From a virus (taxonomy: Duplodnaviria > Heunggongvirae > Uroviricota > Caudoviricetes): a DNA stretch of 64,000 nt. The stretch is from the IMG/VR virus record IMGVR_UViG_3300005831_000057; one strand, written 5' to 3'. A program made the position numbers and the translations under genes. Within the stretch, counting starts at the first letter, position 1. Every line of letters starts with the position of its first letter. Below are positions 5,704 through 48,511 of this stretch, one piece after another. The notes below the pieces were generated by a model that had not been told where the DNA came from, made no database searches, and was given only the letters and a program-made list of their open reading frames with translations.

Positions 5704-6513
5704 TTGGTAACTTTTACTTATAATAGCGTAAGTTTATCTTCTATGTTAACTGATAGTATGACAGTCTGTAGGCTCGATGCGTCACAAGATTATCCAAGTT
5801 TTCTAGGAAGAGAAATTATCAAAGGAGAGGTTAGAGCAAGCAGACCAGTTGCTAACTTTTACGGAACAAAAAATGCAAATGTAATCGAATTTTCTTTTAC
5901 AATTGTAAAGTCTAATAAGACAGCGTTTAGCGCAACAGATATAAGAACTTTAAACAGACAATTAACATCTACGAAATATCCAAGATTTATGGTGTGGACT
6001 GACACTCCAAATACAATAACGTATCGTGGATTAATAGATACAGAATCATACTTGGTGCTTGGAAAGAATGTGTATGGAATAACTTACAAGTTTACATCAA
6101 ATTCTCCATATGTATGGTCTGATATAACTACGTCAACTACAATAGTAACGACTACTAGTAACGTGTCTATAAGCTATCCTACTGACGAAATGTATAATTA
6201 TGGATATCCGTCAATAACATTAAATAATTCTAGCGTAACTGCTAAAACATATACGATAACAAATACAACAGACAATAACAGAAGTATGACAATAACCGTT
6301 CCTCCTAGCACTACATATTATATAGATACCGAATATAATCGAGTTTTAGATGATTATGGTTCTATATCGTTCGAGGATTTAGGATGGGAAAATTTGACAA
6401 ATCTACAATGGATAAGATTGGTATATGGGGCTAACGCATTTGTATTGACTGGAGCTGGAACTATAACATTTTCTTTTAGATATCCAATGAAAGATATAGG
6501 GGTGATTATTTAA
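5704..6513 (+). CDS. Distal tail protein (Dit-like)
   Basis: 269 aa ORF directly after the TMP and overlapping the start of the large tail protein, the canonical siphovirus Dit position. Confidence 0.55.
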   Translation: MVTFTYNSVSLSSMLTDSMTVCRLDASQDYPSFLGREIIKGEVRASRPVANFYGTKNANVIEFSFTIVKSNKTAFSATDIRTLNRQLTSTKYPRFMVWTDTPNTITYRGLIDTESYLVLGKNVYGITYKFTSNSPYVWSDITTSTTIVTTTSNVSISYPTDEMYNYGYPSITLNNSSVTAKTYTITNTTDNNRSMTITVPPSTTYYIDTEYNRVLDDYGSISFEDLGWENLTNLQWIRLVYGANAFVLTGAGTITFSFRYPMKDIGVII

Positions 6514-9500
6514 TGGCTATTTATAACTTTTTGGAAGGATTATTAATAAAGAAAAATGGAGCGTTCGGAAGGCTTAGACTTAGTCAAGAAGAAATACTAT
6601 TATCCAAGAATACATATCTATTAACTCCTAGTAAAATATATCTGTGTAAACCCAATAGAAAGCCTATATGCGTCTTAAATGGAGTTGATATAAATAGTGT
6701 ACAAACAAGCGTTAGACTACAAGATATATGCAAACTATCGTTTTCTGTTGATAAATATATAACAATAGGTGATTCTGAAATTGTAAGTGATGGATATGAT
6801 ATACTTCATGCTTATATGGAAGTTTATGTTGAGAATATTGGATATTTTAAAATACAAGAGCCGTCAATAATGATAGAAGATGGAAGAGAATATAAAACTG
6901 TAAGCGGAGAGTCTGTAGATAAAGAGCTTATAGACAAAGATTTGATTGGGCTATCTATAAATATGGGAACAGAAGATTCGCTAGAAATGTTAGTTGATGG
7001 CAACGTTAGTAATGCTGGATTTAGAATAGAGCCTATTACATTTTATAATGAATTCAGACCAGAGTTGTCGCTTCTTGATATAGTAATGGAAAAGATTTCT
7101 GGATGGAGTATAGCGTTCGTAGACGAAAGTTTAAAGAATAGAGTATTTAATTTTGAAATAGATTCTAAAAATATATATGCATTTTTAACACAAGATGTTT
7201 CTGGTTCTGCTGAATGTATATTCTTCTTTAACACAATAGACAAAACTATAAGTGTTTATGCCAAAGAAAATATAGGCGAAGATACTGGAATATTTATATC
7301 ACAAGAAAACCTAATGAATACTGTTGACATAAATTGCGACTCTGATAGCATATATACGAGACTTAATGTTAGAGGAGAAGGCGAATTAAATTTATCAGCT
7401 GTTAACTTTGGTGACTTAAGGATATTTAATAGAGATTATTTTATGACTACAGACTATGTGTCTCAAGATATAATAGATAAGCATACTTATTGGAAAAATT
7501 ACAGAGAACTACAAAGATCATTGTATATACAAAAATTCAAAGATTATACTACACAATCTGAAATAGTGGACGAAATAACATATCGTGTACCCAATGATGG
7601 ATGTAATACTTACCAGTGGAATCAGTTAACTCAACTTGAACTAAATGCTAATCTAGTATATTACCAAGCCGAACTTACTACAATGCAAATATCAGTAGAC
7701 ACTACGCCACAATATACCACAGATGGTAATTATATAGCATGGACTCTTAATGGAAGCATAAATCATCAAGCATATATGAATTTATTGTTATCTCAAAACA
7801 AAGGATATTACACATATTACGAAATACTTAATTATATAATGCCAAATATAGAATTAGCGATTGGTAATTATGGTTTATCAGAAGAAAACAAAACGCCTTA
7901 TGTGGAAGATTGGGATACTAACTTTGACTTATATGGAACTGTGGAATTATCGACAAAAAGGGAAGCTTACAAAGAACAACTAATGATACTTTCAAATGTG
8001 GTAATCTTAGATGTGAATAGATCTCCCATATATTTCGCATCATTAACGGCTTCACAGAAATCACAAAATGGTATTAACGAGTCTACGTATGACAACTATT
8101 GCAACACTTACGCTAGTACAAAATTGAATCTTGACAATTGTGAGATATCGCTAGAAGAAAGACAAATAGAACTTAATGATGCTACGGATTTGATGAATAC
8201 ATATATATCTGATTTAGAGAATATGCGAAATGACGTTGATATTTCTAATGTACAATTTGGATTTACTACTGACGAATTAAACACAATTAATATTTTAAAT
8301 ATAGATACAGATTACGCAAATGATAATATATTGGTAACAGAAACTAATACGAGTATTGAAGCTATAGATGTCGCAAATGATTTATATCTTGACGCTACTG
8401 AAAAGTTAATATCACTATCTCAGCCACAATATAATTTTTCTACCACAATAGATAATTTATACAACATGATAGAATTTTATGATTGGAAAATAGATTTCAA
8501 AGTTGGTAATTTTATAAGAGTAGCTATAAGAGATGGTTATGTAGTAAAGTTTAGGCTTTCAGACATTACATTTAATCCTTGTGATGCAGAAAGCGAATTA
8601 TCGGTAACATATACAAATATGGTAAGATCTAAAAATGGGCTTAATGATTTTACGACTTTATTTGATTCTACAATATCAGCACAGAAAAACAGTATATCTT
8701 ATGCGTCAACTAAAGCTACTGGACAAATAGAATTGACTGCTGAATTGCTACAGAAAATATCAAATTCAAGTCAGATATCAAGCAAGATTTCTAATAGTCA
8801 AAGCGCCACATCTACAGATACAGAGCTCAAAACTAGCACAGTTGTAGGCGACGTTATTGGAGCTAGAAAAGTGGACGCTGAAATAATGACTGTTACAAAA
8901 GCCAATGTTAATGAATTATTTTCTGGAGACATAACATTTACTGGAACTATAACTGGTGGATCTTATGATGGCGGAGTTGACAATGGAGTTATAAAAAGTT
9001 TGAATTATGTTCCTAATACAAGCGGAACTAGATTGGACTTGGTTAATGGAAGTTTCGAAACTAGTAGTGCATTACTTCGTGGAGATATTTATGCTGACAA
9101 TGGATACATTGGTGGAGTAGATGGATTTACAATAGATACTAACGCAATCAGAAATGGGAAAACGACGTTCGCTGACTACGTAAATCAAGGTGTGTATATT
9201 TCTACTTCTGGAATTAGTATAGGTGATGCATTGGGTGGATGGATAGGAATAGATATAGACGGAACTATGGAGTTAAGAAGATATAATGAACTAGGTGTGT
9301 TACTTTCTTCTAATCGAGTAGAACCAGATTTAATAAATATCTATACAGATGATACATATTTTACAACCATATCAGATGGGTTAGTTTTATGTAGCGGAGA
9401 TATTTTGGCTAATTACAATCCTACTACTACAAATGGTATATCATTAGCTACGATAGGTTACGATTCTGGGTGGATTGCTCCTACGATATTAGCATCATTT

Positions 9501-40038: not shown

Positions 40039-41238
40039 TTATTCATTGTCAAAAATACATTCTAGCACTTTAGCCATTCTTGTAATCATCGGAACTACTA
40101 ATGCATTCCCCATGCAAAAATATCTCATTCTCTCCGTCATTCCAGTATTTGTCCAGTTATCGTCAAATCCATTTAGACGTTCAGATTCTAACGGCGTAAT
40201 TACTCTTAGTTTATTAGTGCTATTACACATTACTACGTGCGAACTTCTGTTGCAAGTACTTTCGCTAGTTAGCATAGTCCTACTAGGTCTGTCTAAGAAA
40301 TCTGGAAATGGCACTGCTCCTTCGGAATATATGTATTCATGACCAGTCTTCGAAATTCTATTTATCTTTTTAGAATTTTTAAGATATTCCCACTTAGATA
40401 TATTCTGTCCTAAGTAATACTTTTCGTCAACAACTTTTTCTAATACATCGCAAAGATTTATAGTGGTTTCTCTTTTTTCTAATACTTTAACTGTGTATAT
40501 TTCCCCGTCGCTCATATATCCCGCATTCTCAAATTCAAACATATAGTTGTCAGATACATTTTGTATATAATTATATTCTACAGTTGAATATTTTAATACC
40601 TCGCATTCACTTATTGGAAATGCTTTGCAAAAAAAACCATCCTTTGTAATTATATCTAACTTATCATCAATGTTCATCCTTTGTTTAAATTTAGTACTTG
40701 TTTTGTATGCAAATATAAATACTCTTCTCCTTCTTTGCGCTGCCCCATACGACGCTGCGTTTACAACTCGCCATTCTACGTCATATCCGAGTTTGGCAAA
40801 GCACGATAGTATTATTCCAAAATCCCTACCTCTTTGCGTTGAAGGTGATTTTAAAAGCCTATCTACATTTTCAAGCAATACAAACGGAGGACTTTTAGCT
40901 AATAATACATCCATTATAGACCACCATAGTACTCCTTTTTTACCTTTAATTCCTTCTTGACCATTCAAGCATCTGGCAACTGAATAATCTTGACATGGAA
41001 ATCCTCCTACTAATAAATTATGATTTGGAATATTTTCTTTATTTACTTCGTTTATATCTATATTTGTAAATTGATCAATATACCCATAATGTTTTAGATA
41101 ACAGTCGTGCGCCCACTGATTTTTTTTATTAGGTTCGTATTGATTAAACCACACAGTATCCCAGTCTTTATTTTGTCTTTCTAGTCCCAATCGAAATCCA
41201 CCCACACCAGCAAACAACTCGCAAACGGTCTTTTCCAT
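40039..41238 (-). CDS. DNA (cytosine-5)-methyltransferase (second copy)
   Basis: FAGVGG, GGFPCQDYS, ENV and QRRRRVF motifs. Confidence 0.85.
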   Translation of the reverse strand: MEKTVCELFAGVGGFRLGLERQNKDWDTVWFNQYEPNKKNQWAHDCYLKHYGYIDQFTNIDINEVNKENIPNHNLLVGGFPCQDYSVARCLNGQEGIKGKKGVLWWSIMDVLLAKSPPFVLLENVDRLLKSPSTQRGRDFGIILSCFAKLGYDVEWRVVNAASYGAAQRRRRVFIFAYKTSTKFKQRMNIDDKLDIITKDGFFCKAFPISECEVLKYSTVEYNYIQNVSDNYMFEFENAGYMSDGEIYTVKVLEKRETTINLCDVLEKVVDEKYYLGQNISKWEYLKNSKKINRISKTGHEYIYSEGAVPFPDFLDRPSRTMLTSESTCNRSSHVVMCNSTNKLRVITPLESERLNGFDDNWTNTGMTERMRYFCMGNALVVPMITRMAKVLECIFDNE

Positions 41239-42142: not shown

Positions 42143-42724
42143 TTATTTTCTTACTTTACATAATTCGTCGTATAATCCTTTTAGTATATCTACATCTTTA
42201 ATATTTCTAGGATCTCCATCTTCAATAGCAGCTTTACATAAATCGCCTACTTTTTCTTTTGCTTTATCTGACAACTTACATTTAGCTACCATCGTATCGA
42301 AACACATCTGTCTGTATTTGGTTAAATCAATGGCAAGTTCAGTATCTTCCATTTTTTCGTAAATATAAATACCTAATCCCATTAATGCCAAACATTTAAC
42401 TAAACATCTTTGATTTGACTTGTTAGCATCCATTGACGTAATCATATCTGCTGGGATTGACTTATTTTTAAAGTCCATAATTGGCAAATAAGAAGTTTGT
42501 TTTGCGTCTTGGCTAGGAATTGTAACTGTAACATTAACCCATCCAGTCCTTCCGTCGTCAAACCACGGTCTTCCATCGGCATTAGTTCCAGTTTCAAACG
42601 TAGTGTCTGGATATTTACCTTTGATTGTAGCCCAAGCTGATGCCCAATCTAAATAAGTCAGTCCATTTTTGGTGCTTGTCCTGTCGTTTACAGAAATTTC
42701 TGATAAGTTTTTAAAATAATCCAT
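42143..42724 (-). CDS. Rad52/Sak-like single-strand annealing protein (DUF1071-like)
   Basis: GLTYLDWASAW...YPD resembles the Sak/Rad52-like SSAP signature. Adjacent to the SSB. Confidence 0.4.
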   Translation of the reverse strand: MDYFKNLSEISVNDRTSTKNGLTYLDWASAWATIKGKYPDTTFETGTNADGRPWFDDGRTGWVNVTVTIPSQDAKQTSYLPIMDFKNKSIPADMITSMDANKSNQRCLVKCLALMGLGIYIYEKMEDTELAIDLTKYRQMCFDTMVAKCKLSDKAKEKVGDLCKAAIEDGDPRNIKDVDILKGLYDELCKVRK

Positions 42725-43393: not shown

Positions 43394-44347
43394 TTATTTG
43401 TCTTTAATTATTGCACTTACGCCTTGAACAGTAACTTTGCTACCGTTCCATTTTTCTATTTCTTTATATTTAACAAGATTATCATTAATTGATGCTGAAA
43501 TCTTCTTGTTGGCAGTAGCTTCTGCACTAGATTTAATAATTACTGCATCTGCATCGGCTTTTGCTTTTGATAAAATCTGTTTATTCTTGTTTTGCTGCGT
43601 AATAATATTCTGTTCGGATGAAAACTTTTGGTTAATTGACTTCTGAATAGACGCATCTTGATAAGTTAATCCATTTTTCATACCTAAAACTGTAATGGTA
43701 ATTCCACGTCCACTAAAATAATCCACTACATCTTTTCTTACACTGTCCATAATAACACTTTTGTTTGCTAGCACATTATTTAACGTGTATTTTGCACACT
43801 CTTCGACAAATTTAGACTCTACTCTTGCCCTAATTTCAGTATCCATAATATTTGCTAACGTCTTATTATTGTATCTATATAAGAATTTTGTAGCATTAAA
43901 CTCGTCAATTTGAGCAGAACAGTTCATTCCGACACTGAAACCGATTGATTCTTTTGATTCAGCCATAATTACTTGATTTTTTGGGGTAGTTCCAGTCTTG
44001 CTATCGGATGTCCACTCTCTTGTTTCTGGCTTTCTTTCCACGATAACTAATTTTACTGTTGCACGATAATACCCAGAGTCTTCAAATCTTCCAGTTTGAA
44101 CCCATCTTTTAGAAATCGTGATCTCTTTTGATGCGACTTTTGCACTATTTAACGCTTCTTCTGACTTAAAAACTTCTTGATCAACTACATCTCCAGTCAA
44201 TGGAATCAAAAATGCCGTCTGCGAAGCCTCTATTGTTTTAATTTCTGGCTTATTATATGGTCTGCATCCCATAAACGAGCATGATACTAATACAAATAAT
44301 ACAACTAAAATACTTCTTCTAATTCTTACGCTTGGTTTAATTTTCAT
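43394..44347 (-). CDS. SPFH/band-7 (prohibitin-like) domain lipoprotein
   Basis: Lipobox LVSCSF. The central region resembles a band-7 domain and is followed by an Ala/Lys-rich coiled coil. Confidence 0.45.
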   Translation of the reverse strand: MKIKPSVRIRRSILVVLFVLVSCSFMGCRPYNKPEIKTIEASQTAFLIPLTGDVVDQEVFKSEEALNSAKVASKEITISKRWVQTGRFEDSGYYRATVKLVIVERKPETREWTSDSKTGTTPKNQVIMAESKESIGFSVGMNCSAQIDEFNATKFLYRYNNKTLANIMDTEIRARVESKFVEECAKYTLNNVLANKSVIMDSVRKDVVDYFSGRGITITVLGMKNGLTYQDASIQKSINQKFSSEQNIITQQNKNKQILSKAKADADAVIIKSSAEATANKKISASINDNLVKYKEIEKWNGSKVTVQGVSAIIKDK

Positions 44348-44967: not shown

Positions 44968-46473
44968 TTACATAATCTCTTTTAAAATATCTTCTAATGG
45001 CTGATATCTTTCAGAGTTAAGTACGTCTAACAATACTTCATATGGATCCATTTTGTCAGATAACACCATCTTGAAAGTGTTTACTGAAAATCCACTTACT
45101 AAGGCAACTCCAAGTTCATTTTGAATTACTGGAATAGTACTGCTTCTTGAACATACATTCCAAAATACCAACCTTGGCATATTATATCCATGATCTTTGA
45201 AATCTTGTGTTAGCTTGTCAAAGATTCTTACTTCTGCATTTTCTTTGCATTCGTCAAATTCCATATCGGATATAACCAAAATATTACTTGGCAAATCCTC
45301 TTGTTTCATATTGCCATTAATCGCAGTGTCGAGAATAAGCTTAAACACAGCCTCGATGTCGGTGTTACTTACTTCCCATTCATCATTAGCTCTGTGAAGT
45401 TTTGCCAATAATGAATCGCGTCCGCTTAAATCGACAAGCTGAGGTTTACTTGAAAACGTAATAAACTTATCCTTAAACTCTCCACTACACCTTTCTGAAA
45501 AATATATAGAAAGTGAAGTAGCTACATCGTGTGCAGTTACAGTGGTATTTCCTACACTTGTACCCATACTACCCGAACCATCTCTTACGACAATTGTATT
45601 CGAATTTCCATCAACAATATCTTTCTGATTAGCCCACAACATTTCAAGATTACTGTCTAAGTCTGTGCGATACTCACTTTTATACCTAGAAACTATCTCG
45701 TATGGCATAAGAACTCCAGCGTTAACAGTCTCTTCTCCACTTTTAACCTTCTCTATAAACTCTGAACGCCTTGCTTCGTCATGCTTATAGAACGCTGCGT
45801 TGTAAAGAAGATTATTCTTTGATGTAATTGTCTTGTAGTTAATTTCATCCCATCTTCCACTACACATTTTAACTTCTACCACGTCGATATATCTTCTAAG
45901 ACTTGATAATGCTTTTCTATATTCCTTTTCAGTAAGTCCAAGATATCCGCTTACAATTTTTCCAAGTCTCTTAGTATTCTTAGAGCTTGCATTAATAGAT
46001 GGTAGCCACTTACCAAGCAATGAAACTTCTTGATCATTGTCTAAAGCATTAAGATCTTGATCAAGAGTACGTTTGATCATTGATAATACTAATTCTGACA
46101 ACTTTGTGTCTAGTAAGCATAAAATGTCGTCGAATCTTCCATAGAAAGGAATAAACTTAATTAAATCCTTTACCACTTCTTTGTTGTTTTCAGCCAAATA
46201 GCAAATAATAATCTTGAACAAATTTCTTTCTCCTAGTCCTTCTCTTATATCTCTGGCGTAAAATAACCACTTGATTGAATTCTTTGCATCTTCGTCATAA
46301 GCCTTAACAAAAGATTTGATAATTTCTTCACTCGTAGAATTTCTAAATGAAGAAACTTTAAAATTTAAATCCAATAAATATTTTCCAGTAGTCTTATATC
46401 CTAAACCACCATTCTCTGTGATACTAAAATTGTTATCTAAATCTAACTGTTTTTCTAATTTTGTAATAAACAT
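44968..46473 (-). CDS. TROVE-like + vWA protein related to Ro60/Rsr (DUF2828-like)
   Basis: C-terminal vWA MIDAS VVRDGSGSMGT...T...D. The ~290-aa helical N-terminal region is compatible with TROVE. AGAGGA RBS. Confidence 0.55.
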   Translation of the reverse strand: MFITKLEKQLDLDNNFSITENGGLGYKTTGKYLLDLNFKVSSFRNSTSEEIIKSFVKAYDEDAKNSIKWLFYARDIREGLGERNLFKIIICYLAENNKEVVKDLIKFIPFYGRFDDILCLLDTKLSELVLSMIKRTLDQDLNALDNDQEVSLLGKWLPSINASSKNTKRLGKIVSGYLGLTEKEYRKALSSLRRYIDVVEVKMCSGRWDEINYKTITSKNNLLYNAAFYKHDEARRSEFIEKVKSGEETVNAGVLMPYEIVSRYKSEYRTDLDSNLEMLWANQKDIVDGNSNTIVVRDGSGSMGTSVGNTTVTAHDVATSLSIYFSERCSGEFKDKFITFSSKPQLVDLSGRDSLLAKLHRANDEWEVSNTDIEAVFKLILDTAINGNMKQEDLPSNILVISDMEFDECKENAEVRIFDKLTQDFKDHGYNMPRLVFWNVCSRSSTIPVIQNELGVALVSGFSVNTFKMVLSDKMDPYEVLLDVLNSERYQPLEDILKEIM

Positions 46474-46512
46474 AATCTTCCTCTTTTCTTTTCATTTTTT
46501 TATTTAATCACT

Positions 46513-46562
46513 AGATACCATATTCATCGCATATGATTTTTTTAATTTGCTGCGTGTACCTA
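46513..46562. repeat. Direct repeat copy R1 (core TTCATCGCATATGATTTTTTTAATTTGCTGCGTGTACC)
   Basis: Near-identical to R4. Read directly from the sequence. Confidence 0.8.
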
Positions 46563-46586
46563 TGATTATGTTTTATTTTTTACTTA

Positions 46587-46627
46587 CAAGATGCCATATT
46601 TCATCGCATATGATTTTTAATTTGCTG
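46587..46627. repeat. Direct repeat copy R2 (CAAGATGCCATATTTCATCGCATATGATTTTTAATTTGCTG)
   Basis: Shares the core with R1 and R4. Directly flanks the tRNA-like element. Confidence 0.8.
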
Positions 46628-46639
46628 TTAACATCTTAA

Positions 46640-46752
46640 TCGACACAGTAGGGCTCGAACCTACGACATATAGTTTTCTTTTTTATTGCTGTATAAATAT
46701 TTTACAATATTTTAAATTTTGCTATCGCTCTCCCAGCTGAGCTATGTGTCGA
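46640..46752 (-). ncRNA. tRNA-like ncRNA with a ~50-nt expansion replacing the anticodon arm; candidate Y-RNA-like (YrlA-type) RNA
   Basis: On the minus strand: a perfect 7-bp acceptor stem (CGACACA/TGTGTCG), a D-arm GCTCAGCTGGGAGAGC and a T-arm GTAGGTTCGAGCCCTAC. ~50 nt of AT-rich insert with an AAATATT-GTAA-AATATTT hairpin lies between the D- and T-arms. No CCA is encoded. Confidence 0.5.
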
Positions 46753-46782
46753 ATCTACTAGATGCGCTTTAACTTTAAAATA

Positions 46783-46807
46783 GTTTTTTTAATTTGCTGC
46801 TTACATC
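46783..46807. repeat. Partial direct repeat copy R3 (TTTTTTTAATTTGCTGCTTACATC)
   Basis: Matches the 3' half of R1/R2/R4. Flanks the tRNA-like element on the other side. Confidence 0.6.
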
Positions 46808-46817
46808 TATTTTTTTA

Positions 46818-46870
46818 CAAGATACGTTATTTTCATCGCATATGATTTTTTTAATTTGCTGCGTGTACCT
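46818..46870. repeat. Direct repeat copy R4 (CAAGATACG...TTCATCGCATATGATTTTTTTAATTTGCTGCGTGTACCT)
   Basis: 38/38 identity with the R1 core. Located at the predicted 5' end of the transcript from the 46881-46909 promoter. Confidence 0.8.
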
Positions 46871-46880
46871 TACTTTAATC

Positions 46881-46909
46881 ATTATATCATACTTATTTTT
46901 GCTTGTCAA
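46881..46909 (-). promoter_or_regulatory. Perfect-consensus sigma-A promoter (minus strand): TTGACA-N17-TATAAT with an A-tract UP element
   Basis: Reverse complement reads AAAAAAAGTGTTGACAagcaaaaataagtatgaTATAAT. Confidence 0.6.
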
Positions 46910-46960
46910 CACTTTTTTTATTTATTTTTTTATTTAATTTGCATCAACTACTATAAAAAT

Positions 46961-46989
46961 ATTATATCATGTATATTTCAAGATGTCAA
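46961..46989 (-). promoter_or_regulatory. Second perfect-consensus sigma-A promoter in tandem (minus strand)
   Basis: Reverse complement reads AAAAAAAGTATTGACAtcttgaaatatacatgaTATAAT. Confidence 0.6.
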
Positions 46990-46997
46990 TACTTTTT

Positions 46998-47720
46998 TTA
47001 AATTATTACTAAGTTATTTATATAATCTCTATTCTTTGTGAATATTGGTATTTCGTTATCGATCACCCATTCGCCAAGTCCGTTTCTTATGGCGCAAGAT
47101 CCTCTTTTGAAACTAGTCTCGACATTATTCCAATTAATATCCTTCTCCATCAACATATCTTGTACCTCCGACGTATTCTTAAATTGTAAAGACTTGTGAG
47201 AAAATACCGACTGAGCCAATCCATTTATACTATTCCTTGTGGCATCTTGCTGTCGCCAAACTAAGCAGTTAGCAGCGTCTCCTTTTGGTATGTTGAAAAC
47301 TCTTGAGTCAAATGTAGCACTCTTAAGTTTTTCATATTTATCTATATTGCAACCGTCTATTCTACTACATATACTCTTATTAAATTCCAAAGTAGCAATA
47401 GAAGCTGAAACGCTTACCATCTTTTGGATATTATTACTAAACCAAGGCTGAGTTTCAAGTCTAAAATAATCCACTATCAATAGCGTTATTTCGTCAGACT
47501 GTGTATACCCAAGCACGCAACCTTGTATTTTCTTGCACAATTGTAGCATCGTATCTTGCATCGCACCAGATAAAACTGTGTCGTATGGACGATCTATTCC
47601 TTTGGCTAAAGTGTGAAACGCACAGCCGTCAAGTCTTATAATGACTGGAGTTCGTCTCATTAATTCTCCATTACTAACTCTTTCATAAGCCTTCATTCTA
47701 TCTCCTAGCGAATCTACCAT
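46998..47720 (-). CDS. Thg1-like protein (tRNA-His guanylyltransferase family 3'-5' polymerase, TLP)
   Basis: KAYERV, VIIRLDGCAFHTL, GYTQSDEITLL, VWRQQDATRNSINGL and the C-terminal block align with the Thg1/TLP hallmarks (KFEYVR, VVVRLDGRNFHRF, AYGQSDEYSF, SWRQADCHINNL). Confidence 0.85.
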   Translation of the reverse strand: MVDSLGDRMKAYERVSNGELMRRTPVIIRLDGCAFHTLAKGIDRPYDTVLSGAMQDTMLQLCKKIQGCVLGYTQSDEITLLIVDYFRLETQPWFSNNIQKMVSVSASIATLEFNKSICSRIDGCNIDKYEKLKSATFDSRVFNIPKGDAANCLVWRQQDATRNSINGLAQSVFSHKSLQFKNTSEVQDMLMEKDINWNNVETSFKRGSCAIRNGLGEWVIDNEIPIFTKNRDYINNLVII

Positions 47721-47731
47721 AAACTCACCTC

Positions 47732-48511
47732 CTATAATATTATTGCGTCAAGTCCTATATTTACACTGTCGAACGCATTTCTCTTCTCTTCTTTAGTTAT
47801 TCCAATATATTCAAGCGTAATAGAGCTAGAACTGTGCCCTAAAATACTCTGCAATACAGATAACATTTTTCCTTTATCTTCTGACGTATCATATCTAAAT
47901 CTGCAAAAACTACGTCTTAGGCTATGTGTGCCAACATCGTACCTTACACATGCGAAGTCTGATGCATCCTTTATGCTCTTGTAAAAAGCAGGATAATTCA
48001 TATGTCCGCCTCTAGCACCTTCAAATACATAATCTTCATGATTTACATATTTTATATTCTTGCCAACAGACTTAAGATAATTACTTATTGCCATTCTAAA
48101 TCCTTCATTAAAAGACAAAAAAACATGCTTGTCATATCTACTTGTTTTTTCTGGCTTAATCGTTTTGCCATCTTTGAAATTATTATTATCGTCTAGTATA
48201 TCGCCAAACTTAATAGACAATAAGTCATTTATTCTAAGCCCGAGATTTATATTGCATAAGAATATTGCCTTTTGGCATCTATAAGAATCTCTATATCTAT
48301 ACTGCGATTCAGTTATCATTTTGTCATAATATGCTACAAACTTATTTACATCTTCTAGCCTAATATATTCGCCTTTATCTTCACGATTACTTTTGGCGTT
48401 AGACTTCGTTTGTTTTGGAAGTCCATCTTTTCTTAATTTTGCTACTTTACCGCCGTCTATAACTTCTAACGGCTTACTTGTTTCAAAAGAATAAATTCTT
48501 GCAGTATTCAT
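47732..48511 (-). CDS. Tyrosine recombinase / integrase family protein
   Basis: R (GLRINDLL), HSLRRSF (HxxR) and LGHSSSSITLEYIG (catalytic Tyr) motifs. Confidence 0.7.
   Translation of the reverse strand: MNTARIYSFETSKPLEVIDGGKVAKLRKDGLPKQTKSNAKSNREDKGEYIRLEDVNKFVAYYDKMITESQYRYRDSYRCQKAIFLCNINLGLRINDLLSIKFGDILDDNNNFKDGKTIKPEKTSRYDKHVFLSFNEGFRMAISNYLKSVGKNIKYVNHEDYVFEGARGGHMNYPAFYKSIKDASDFACVRYDVGTHSLRRSFCRFRYDTSEDKGKMLSVLQSILGHSSSSITLEYIGITKEEKRNAFDSVNIGLDAIIL

Follow-up and report, generated by a model that had tools for sequence, protein, structure and literature searches.

Results

An interrupted tRNA frame and four related stem-loops lie upstream of a Ro-like gene

Exploring a 64,000-nucleotide stretch of a Caudoviricetes genome (IMG/VR virus record IMGVR_UViG_3300005831_000057; "the window" denotes this whole stretch), we found a gene-free leader of 524 nt (46474-46997), with all neighbouring genes on its strand (minus), that carries five related RNA units in the order R1, R2, a tRNA-shaped unit, R3 and R4, followed by a gene whose product is predicted to adopt a Ro60 fold. 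An initial annotation, made from the letters alone, had singled out the tRNA-shaped unit and placed it immediately upstream of this gene; it does lie upstream, at a distance of 167 nt from the start codon and with two of the repeat units in between. The features of the leader and the gene are as follows.

46817-46873, minus strand: stand-alone unit R1, stem GUAAGGUAC/GUAUCUUGU, then AC and GCAGCAA
46759-46809, minus strand: stand-alone unit R2, stem UAGAUGU/GCAUCUA, GCAGCAA
46640-46751, minus strand: tRNA-scaffolded module RNA (the element), a full tRNA frame with a 48-nt insert in the anticodon arm
46587-46638, minus strand: stand-alone unit R3, stem UAAGAUGUUA/UGGCAUCUUG of 10 bp, ACAGCAA
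46512-46562, minus strand: stand-alone unit R4, stem UAGGUAC/GUAUCUA, GCAGCAA
44968-46473, minus strand: protein of 501 aa with predicted Ro60 fold (DUF2828 and DUF7788), downstream of the leader, the proposed partner

Read on the minus strand from 46751 to 46640, the element is CGACACA-UA-GCUC-AGCUGGGA-GAGC-G-AUAG-[48 nt]-CUAU-AUGUC-GUAGG-UUCGAGC-CCUAC-UGUGUCG-A. Its tRNA body consists of the acceptor stem, D arm, variable loop, T arm and a discriminator A, and the 3' CCA is not encoded. The first three parts below were read from the sequence and the anticodon-stem remnant from the Rfam alignment.

46745-46751 and 46641-46647, minus strand: acceptor stem CGACACA/TGTGTCG, 7 perfect bp
46727-46742, minus strand: D arm GCTC-AGCTGGGA-GAGC
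46648-46664, minus strand: T arm GTAGG-TTCGAGC-CCTAC
46722-46725 and 46670-46673, minus strand: anticodon-stem remnant AUAG/CUAU, 4 bp, closing the insert
46695-46712, minus strand: module hairpin AAAUAUU-GUAA-AAUAUUU, 7 bp, A-U only, directly 5' of the ACAGCAA motif
46686-46692, minus strand: motif ACAGCAA, single-stranded, 2 nt after the module hairpin, the proposed recognition element of the Ro60-like protein

The three arms and the A-U hairpin that the initial annotation had described are all present. The Rfam tRNA model (RF00005) matched the element over model positions 1-71 with 46.4 bits, the gathering score being 29, and with an E value of 1e-6 over the whole window. The frame has the 7-bp acceptor stem, a D arm with G18G19, a TTCGA T loop and a variable loop (ATGTC) as in a cloverleaf, and the Rfam alignment places 48 nt at its positions 31-39, where 9 are expected. 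The AT-rich sequence of ~50 nt had been thought to replace the anticodon arm; the insert is there, but the arm is interrupted and not wholly replaced, since the 4-bp remnant closes the insert. Positions 31-39 form a C-A mismatch, the 7 nt ahead of the 3' strand of the remnant are AAAGAAA, which has no U33 and leaves no usable anticodon loop, and a canonical anticodon arm (5 bp, 7-nt loop, U33, purine 37) is obtained neither directly nor after a single excision, so that the window copy cannot decode. In the place of the anticodon loop it has AAGAAAA, where its closest relatives have AUGGGGA or GUUGGGG (Pro-type loops); the window copy is itself of the Pro type, with D and T arms identical to those of the frame at one related locus (L083). 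ARAGORN at default settings reported no tRNA in the whole window, in agreement with the earlier view that the element is not a canonical tRNA, and with introns allowed it called the element 'Tyr(ata), intron 24 nt', an arbitrary call. Ordinary tRNA genes are absent from the window (none by ARAGORN, only the expanded frame by Rfam), unlike most relatives, in which arrays of ordinary tRNAs surround the Ro-like gene.

Several known kinds of insert do not fit. No Rfam ribozyme matched at E<=10, which excludes a small self-cleaving ribozyme; a group I intron is excluded by the length of the insert (48 nt, where the core needs more than ~200 nt) and by the lack of an Rfam intron match at E<=10; and the insert does not behave as a protein-spliced intron of the archaeal or eukaryal type, given that the window copy yields no canonical mature arm.

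Rather than the free-form AT-rich expansion that had been supposed, the insert holds a conserved module, namely a helix followed by 2 nt and ACAGCAA. R1-R4 are stem-loops of ~50 nt carrying (A/G)CAGCAAAUUAAAAA directly after the 5' strand of each closing stem; R4 and R1 are 82% identical over 67 nt, and the loop of R1 holds an inner hairpin (UCAU-AUGCG-AUGA). The window thereby holds one grafted and four stand-alone units of a helix-ACAGCAA family, with the motif (A/G)C(A/U)GCAA on the gene strand. Four occurrences of the motif in the leader, against 0.64 expected across the whole window, rule out chance repeats as the source of these units. A loose stem-plus-motif definition gave ~8 scattered matches elsewhere in the AT-rich window, where ~2.3 are expected from shuffles, and these are probably chance matches.

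The module adjoins the Ro-like gene in metagenomic relatives

In a metagenomic sample of 80 IMG/VR loci with homologs of the Ro-like gene, modules adjoin the gene in all 80. Counted as AC[AT]GCAA or GCAGCAA, the motif occurs 4.8 times per 1200 nt upstream of the gene on its strand, compared with 0.06 on the opposite strand and 0.55 elsewhere. It lies upstream in 79 of the loci, and the eightieth (L017) has two expanded frames immediately downstream. The relatives L004-L007 (~53% protein identity) have a leader of 640-710 nt with two expanded tRNA frames and three stem-loop units, all with ACAGCAA.

With introns allowed, ARAGORN reported 204 'intron-containing' frames at the 80 loci, corresponding to 131 distinct frames of 105-148 nt, and the exact motif is present in 109 of the 131. 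Many of these frames encode the 3' CCA. The inserts are 40-70 nt long, sit mostly inside the 5' strand of the anticodon stem and follow one plan: a few nt, a hairpin of 5-8 bp, 2-3 nt, ACAGCAA and a U-rich tail. Across 38 diverse aligned frames the C-GCAA columns are invariant, and RNAalifold recovers the acceptor, D, T and module-hairpin helices. A covariance model built from these 38 relatives' frames with the window left out (model R1, not to be confused with unit R1) found the window element at 46639-46751 with 79.5 bits (E~1e-17), aligning both the hairpin and the motif. Among 145 distinct matches, compensatory changes were seen at all five pairs of the module hairpin, with 94.9% of its cells paired, and pairing over the whole structure reached 97.9%, versus 64% after shuffling and 37-50% with slid partner columns, counts that lean towards model R1 because the alignment was fitted to that model. 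The local hairpin 5' of the motif averages 6.2 bp versus 2.6 bp in the control. Inside the Ro-like coding sequence of the window (45584-45702, minus strand), model R1 gave 12.1 bits (E 0.46), which we judged to be noise.

At the locus L003 (988-1232 and 1310-1530, minus strand), an expanded frame with the ACUGCAA variant and 84.6 bits to model R1 lies inside a tRNA array, despite there being no DUF2828 gene within the 13 kb examined of this 72-kb viral contig. Before it, behind a promoter-like TGTGATATAAT, come ~230 nt that lack annotation and are richer in GC, and after it comes a tRNA of Leu type in which ~37 additional nt separate the D arm from an intact CUUAAAA anticodon arm.

Stand-alone units carry parts of tRNAs

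A MAFFT-based model of the stand-alone units was abandoned, because loop lengths vary and MAFFT lost the register of the 3' stem strands, and an explicit definition by stem and motif, with controls, was used instead. Unit density per kb was 1.48 in leaders, 0.000 on the opposite strand and 0.069 elsewhere, and a locus can have as many as 10 units. Where no tRNA frame is present, the 5' strand of a closing stem is followed after 0-3 nt by the motif, and these stems average 7.4 contiguous bp versus 5.2 in shuffled sequence, 77% of them having at least 7 bp. The closing stems covary between loci (GACAC/GUGUC, GGCGC/GCGCC, GACGG/CCGUC, ACAUCCC/GGGAUGU), and the extended consensus over 311 distinct units is aAGRCRC-NN-ACAGCAA-wUUU.

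The loops of many units hold pieces of tRNA. T-arm-like hairpins were found in 53 of 178 unit loops, with 1.9 expected from shuffles, and hairpins resembling anticodon arms (5 bp with YU-NNN-R-N) in 71 of 178, with 5.8 expected; some of the latter present real anticodon loops (CUUUUAA, CUGUUAA, CUGAUAA, CUGCAAA, CUUGAAA). The family therefore ranges from bare hairpins such as R1-R4 of the window, through units that display a T arm or anticodon arm, to complete tRNA bodies, and the tRNA-like parts have a parallel in YrlA and YrlB, which themselves contain such parts (PMC4201824). Near-identical sister units or frames differ only in the anticodon that they display, which, as far as sequence comparison can tell, suggests that the anticodon switches rapidly on a fixed scaffold between sister loci. 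The pairs with such switches are L025/L052 (-89/-86), L025/L049 (-159/-165), L041/L054 and L049/L050, and the changes are CUGUUAA versus CUGAUAA, CUUGAAA versus CUUUUAA, GUU versus UCU, and UGA versus UGU.

The neighbouring protein is predicted to have a Ro60 fold

The protein encoded at 44968-46473 matches Pfam DUF2828 and DUF7788 and belongs to PHROG 850, 'RNA-binding protein' (E 6.5e-128). It had been described initially as a TROVE/vWA, Ro60-like protein. Pfam TROVE (PF05731) did not match it and VWA/VWA_2 did so only below threshold, but the likeness to Ro60 was borne out by structure prediction. An AlphaFold (AF2) model computed from a 40-sequence alignment (predicted local distance difference test 81.5, predicted template-modelling score 0.79) has a HEAT-like helical N-terminal half and an alpha/beta vWA C-terminal half with the MIDAS (metal ion-dependent adhesion site) motif DGSGSM. 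In a Foldseek search of the PDB, the nine best full-length matches of the model were all Ro60/TROVE structures (E 1.4e-8 to 6.5e-4, template-modelling score 0.46-0.62), among them 9KOP (TROVE-domain), 9L5Y (Thermus phage phiLo Ro60 dimer), 2I91, 1YVP and 1YVR (Ro60), 9NEP (cryo-EM Ro60 complex) and 9NEN (human Ro60), and the matches below these nine were isolated vWA domains only. We therefore call the protein Ro60-like at the level of fold; on the model, it has a Ro60 fold. Searching the PDB with the single sequence gave no match, the family sequence profile reached only E=0.13, aligned at the MIDAS DGSGSM of 9l5y, and an exact-protein look-up returned no record.

Units accompany the gene in cultured phages of many hosts

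A tblastn search found the Ro-like protein in 692 records of cultured phages; the family is also present in metagenomic sequences, of which there are thousands. Sorted by the first word of the organism name, the most frequent records are:

Escherichia 120, Mycobacterium 95, Salmonella 77, Vibrio 56, Listeria 54
Staphylococcus 42, Campylobacter 38, Enterococcus 36, Bacillus 28

We analyzed a panel of 10 cultured lineages: Listeria P100, Bacillus FADO, mycobacteriophage Kahlid, E. coli Alf5 (Felix O1-like), Vibrio KVP40, Staphylococcus 6ec, Enterococcus EF1, Fusobacterium FNU2 and phiKSUM, and Campylobacter F348. Their proteins are 29-39% identical to that of the window, and all 10 lineages have 1-6 units of the form stem-NN-ACAGCAA-loop-stem beside the gene and on its strand, either upstream or downstream. 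KVP40 has a single unit at -27 from the start codon; those of Kahlid, 6ec and Alf5 are located downstream of the gene or within a tRNA array. Pfam assigned DUF2828 and DUF7788, and no TROVE, to all of six cultured-phage homologs, so the TROVE-based survey of Chen et al. 2014 would not have sampled them, and some of the mycobacteriophage homologs are already annotated as 'Ro-like RNA binding protein'. An Rfam scan of nine cultured loci found tRNAs only, and the hits of model R1 on the panel were mostly ordinary tRNAs; expanded tRNA frames appear to be a speciality of a gut-phage clade that includes the window. A distant-mode nucleotide search of the window locus against cultured phages gave two weak matches only, Fusobacterium phage phiKSUM (weak) and an unannotated human-faecal phage fragment. 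The AT-rich composition of the window and the phiKSUM match hint at a Fusobacterium-like host.

In Listeria P100 (L088, NC_007610), three ACAGCAA units occupy a gap of ~620 nt upstream of gp165, and genes for an RtcB 'tRNA splicing ligase' (gp160) and an HD phosphohydrolase lie 1-1.3 kb downstream (regions 2662-2900 and 5771-7054). The tRNAs of P100 are annotated in its record on the opposite strand, whereas Rfam assigns them to the strand of the gene.

Putative promoters, neighbouring genes and tRNA-repair context

Upstream of the RNA units, the window has the following features.

46881-46909, minus strand: putative promoter P2, TTGACA, 17-nt spacer and TATAAT with a TG extended -10, 12/12, by consensus match only
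46961-46989, minus strand: putative promoter P1, perfect 12/12 sigma-70 consensus with TG, by consensus match only
46998-47720, minus strand: Thg1-like protein (3'-5' tRNA nucleotidyltransferase family; Pfam Thg1 E 3e-29, PHROG 4717 E 1e-85)
47732-48511, minus strand: tyrosine-recombinase (integrase-like) gene, further upstream, beyond the Thg1-like gene

P1 and P2 are 80 nt apart, just after the stop codon of the Thg1-like gene, and between them lies GAUGCAAAUUAAA, which resembles a degenerate, truncated repeat unit. Putative P2 would start a transcript a few nt before R1. No terminator was predicted between the units and the Ro-like gene, and the units are probably co-transcribed with this downstream gene. 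The Thg1-like gene adjoins the RNA cluster on its upstream side; Thg1 is the tRNA-His guanylyltransferase family, a 3'-5' polymerase. Downstream, two small open reading frames after the Ro-like gene, lies a Band_7/SPFH-domain gene (43394-44347, minus strand), and the same block of genes includes a C-5 cytosine DNA methyltransferase and a Sak single-strand annealing protein (40039-41238 and 42143-42724, minus strand).

The Ro-like gene is found repeatedly inside or beside tRNA arrays, in most phages. Among the 80 metagenomic loci, a PF09414 RNA ligase with an N-terminal OB domain directly follows it in 20. A Thg1-like gene lies within ~2 kb of the Ro-like gene in 19 loci besides the window, always together with the PF09414 ligase, a gene that the window itself lacks. 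A Band_7 gene follows in 23 loci, the window included (for example L004 5588-6478 and L006 5586-6476). At L004 (2324-3358) and L005 (1443-2477), a gene for a 344-aa reverse transcriptase (RVT_1) lies directly upstream of the RNA leader, and further downstream in L004 (8790-8861) the Rfam abiF RNA and DUF3800-XI RNA motifs score just above gathering. The tRNA-repair context parallels the bacterial rsr-yrlBA-rtcBA operon, an arrangement of rsr, Y RNA and rtcBA repair genes (PMC4201824; PMC7790460), as well as the RNA-repair islands of jumbo phages (PMC7824862).

Comparison with known Y RNAs

The initial annotation had proposed a YrlA-type RNA. This assignment failed: a covariance-model search gave no match to the Rfam Y-RNA/YrlA models at E<=10 in 46300-47100, nor any at gathering score in 13 related loci, neither the window leader nor any other leader or flank that we examined contains the GNCGAAN0-1G Ro60-binding motif, and the neighbouring protein is not TROVE. 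The topology is also that of an ordinary tRNA. In YrlA the T arm comes first, then an acceptor-like stem-loop that is closed, then the D arm, and a stem of the two RNA ends closes the whole (PMC4201824), whereas the element runs acceptor (5'), D, insert, variable loop, T, acceptor (3'), and its acceptor stem is open. Like YrlA, it lies beside a gene for a Ro60-fold protein, here one of DUF2828/DUF7788 and not of Pfam TROVE. The suggestion that the architecture is a distinct variant proved apt, in that a module is grafted inside a normal tRNA frame, and the element also kept its standing as a candidate Y-RNA-like partner, with modules beside the gene in 80/80 relatives and 10/10 cultured lineages and on the gene strand only, albeit not of the YrlA type.

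The likeness to YrlA/YrlB and their protein Rsr (PMC4201824) extends to several features. In both systems small RNAs, often several per locus, lie beside a Ro60-fold gene; at least one of the RNAs mimics a tRNA in its D arm, T arm and acceptor stem and others in the T arm only; the protein-binding element (proposed, in the present case) is at the junction of the closing stem and the large loop, on the 5' side; and RNA ligase or repair genes are present at the locus, as in rsr-yrlBA-rtcBA. YrlA of M. smegmatis is cut by RNase P and receives CCA, and YrlA/YrlB-type RNAs have also been reported beside TROVE-type Ro60 in phages (Chen et al. 2014, PMC4201824). Unlike in YrlA, the motif here is ACAGCAA after a helix and not GNCGAAN0-1G, the module sits in the anticodon arm of a tRNA of normal order whereas YrlA is permuted and closed by the Ro-binding stem, and the protein is DUF2828/DUF7788 and not Pfam TROVE.

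Thermus phage phiLo, with its Ro60 and the RNAs Yrl1 and Yrl2 (PMC12135203; 9KOP, 9L5Y), likewise combines a phage Ro60-fold protein with RNAs just upstream, and phiLo Ro60 is the best structural match to the window protein (E 1.4e-8, template-modelling score 0.58-0.62). It has been proposed to hijack host RNA enzymes (PNPase) (PMC12135203). The phiLo RNAs differ in having been found through a CGAA motif in a stem-bulge-stem and not as tRNA frames (PMC12135203), and the sequence identity of the two proteins is only 14-16%, with the profile E of 0.13. Yrn1 of Deinococcus radiodurans (PMC4201824) resembles the element in having T-arm features, an orientation unlike that of YrlA and a stem-loop at the position of the anticodon arm, from which it follows that tRNA mimicry in Y RNAs arose more than once; unlike the element, Yrn1 keeps the metazoan-type Ro-binding helix of its 5' and 3' ends and has no intact tRNA frame. 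With intron-containing tRNA genes the element shares an insert in the anticodon arm and 'introns' in ARAGORN, and removal of the insert restores the arm in many relatives. It differs in that the insert, of 40-70 nt, is much shorter than a group I intron, gives no Rfam intron match and sits mostly within the 5' strand of the anticodon stem, in that its module also occurs outside tRNA frames, and in that its removal from the window copy restores nothing.

Discussion

The units as candidate partners of a Ro60-like protein

On balance we think it probable that the units are partner RNAs of the DUF2828/DUF7788 Ro60-like protein, that is, counterparts of Y RNAs; we infer their transcription, processing, binding and role from observations on the anatomy of the element, family membership, covariation, protein fold and genomic linkage. 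Canonical Ro60, including that of phage phiLo, binds small RNAs encoded beside its gene, and in Y RNAs the closing stem, beside a large loop, contains the binding element while the rest mimics tRNA and tethers enzymes (PMC4201824; PMC12135203). In the phages described here, the feature common to every unit is a module made of a short helix (...AGRCRC), ~2 unpaired nt, single-stranded ACAGCAA and a U-rich tract, which would be the binding site of the Ro60-like protein. In the window element this module is grafted into the anticodon arm of an otherwise intact tRNA body. The body would provide a stable L-shaped fold together with RNase P and RNase Z sites that free the RNA from its transcript, and tRNA mimicry could recruit enzymes that handle tRNAs, with the Thg1-like protein encoded next to the units, RtcB or the RNA ligases of relatives, and host nucleases as candidates. 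The resulting ribonucleoprotein (RNP) would most likely act in surveillance and repair of tRNAs or structured RNAs, or counter host defences that target tRNAs during infection, a role that we derive by analogy with Ro60-Y RNA tethering and with the rsr-yrlBA-rtcBA repair operon of bacteria.

Several points weigh against this reading. The link between protein and RNA is guilt by association, drawn from gene neighbourhood. The C residues often found at -5 and -3 of the consensus are missing from the module hairpin of the window, the AT-rich element folds unremarkably (z-score -2.4 for the whole element), its minimum free energy structure is not a cloverleaf, and R1-R4 fold no better than shuffles. 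Folding energy was dropped as evidence of structure for the element, the insert and R1-R4, being uninformative in such AT-rich RNA. Further, units close to the start codon, such as that of KVP40, could also be translational operators, and the frames of relatives from which an anticodon arm can be restored could be true tRNA genes, with the protein as a processing factor and not a stable partner.

Alternative explanations

The last of these points amounts to an explanation of its own, in which the expanded frame is an interrupted tRNA gene, the insert being a new small intervening sequence that is excised and the halves religated into a decoding tRNA, perhaps with the Ro60-like protein as recognition factor and the RNA ligase or RtcB of the locus as sealer. 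In 61 of the 130 frames from relatives, a single excision does restore a perfect 5-bp stem and a loop of 7 nt that has U33 and R37, compared with 39 of 2600 shuffles (1.5%), and the restored loops are authentic ones (CUGUUAA for Asn, CUUUUAA for Lys, and Pro NGG types). Most of these frames are Asn-GUU, interrupted at 28/29-29/30, or Pro-NGG, interrupted at 31/32. Only 8 of the 61 restored anticodons duplicate an ordinary tRNA of the same locus (6.5 kb per genome compared), RNA ligase or RtcB genes recur at the locus, and many frames encode the 3' CCA. Yet the window copy, with its C31-A39 mismatch and no U33, gives no canonical arm, the insert enters at different points (28/29, 29/30, 31/32, 37/38), it is much too short for group I and matches no Rfam intron family at E<=10, and no splicing endonuclease is evident at the locus. 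Sister loci, moreover, swap the displayed anticodon on an otherwise unchanged body, and the module also occurs in stand-alone stem-loops, the universal form across phyla, which have no acceptor stem and thus cannot become tRNAs. As an account of the family we hold this to be quite unlikely, although, judging from the sequences, the expanded frames of some relatives may be genuine interrupted tRNA genes.

Also unlikely, in our view, is that the units act in cis, as operators in the 5' leader of the Ro-like mRNA, through which the protein autoregulates translation or stability and in which the tRNA frame serves as a processing or punctuation signal. The units are on the gene strand and usually upstream, the last of them typically ends 20-100 nt before the start codon (with the single KVP40 unit at -27), and no terminator is predicted before the gene. 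Against an operator stand the units of Kahlid, 6ec and Alf5, which lie downstream or in a tRNA array, the frames of L017 downstream of the gene, the two dedicated consensus promoters of the window, and the occurrence of up to 10 units per locus with elaborate tRNA parts and RNase P/Z-type ends, which an operator does not need. That the element is a decayed tRNA pseudogene hit by a selfish repeat like a miniature inverted-repeat transposable element, with the flanking repeats as further copies lacking RNA function or any link to the protein, would explain the lost anticodon loop of the window copy, the five repeat copies within 360 nt and the folding energies no better than those of shuffles. 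We regard it as highly improbable, given that the motif is kept in phages of at least five bacterial phyla, strand-specifically and always beside a DUF2828 gene, that the stems covary, which indicates selection on RNA structure, that the window copy has a flawless acceptor stem, D arm and T arm, and that the units share the module alone and no extended DNA identity.

Possible tRNA decoys and the biology of the family

A bolder possibility, to which we give some weight but which we would not bet on, is that the RNAs, held by the Ro60-like protein through their conserved helix-ACAGCAA handle, are programmable tRNA decoys or baits. Each RNA would display an authentic tRNA part, be it the complete body, a T arm or just an anticodon stem-loop, the anticodon loops being those of Lys, Asn, Asp, Arg, Ser, Thr, Cys or Ile, and the displayed part would lure, sequester or report host defence nucleases that target tRNAs; alternatively, damaged tRNA pieces would be fed to the ligase and Thg1-like repair enzymes encoded at the locus. 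Anticodon switching between sister phages would then be the signature of an arms race. In a radical variant of the same idea, the modules grafted into Asn- and Pro-type frames would be a new, protein-dependent class of tRNA intervening sequence in bacterial viruses.

The helix-ACAGCAA module family has no match in Rfam 15, and we found no earlier description of module RNAs in the open-access literature, including accounts of phage tRNA decoys, intron-containing phage tRNAs and 'Ro-like' proteins; most subscription journals lie outside this literature, so an earlier report is possible. The helix-ACAGCAA RNAs apparently represent a widespread, undescribed Y-RNA-like partnership in phages of many bacterial phyla. 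We assign the system to the class of Ro60-type RNPs with tRNA-mimicking RNAs, but with a protein branch, an RNA handle and an architecture that are all new.

Particles of Ro60 and Y RNA have been described in animals, in some bacteria and in a few phages, and bacterial Y RNAs have been defined by one motif and one architecture. Returning to the units as probable partners of the Ro60-like protein, a divergent and much larger Ro60-fold family (DUF2828/DUF7788) appears to own RNA partners with a different, highly conserved handle, and these RNAs form a graded series of tRNA mimicry from the bare hairpin through the anticodon arm or T arm to the full tRNA body. The finding would account for long gene-free stretches and for 'intron-containing' or missed tRNA calls in many phage genomes, and it would turn a domain of unknown function into a testable RNP in well-established phage-host systems. 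Linked as it is to Thg1-like proteins, RNA ligases and RtcB, this RNP would therefore be linked to the conflict between phages and their hosts over tRNAs.

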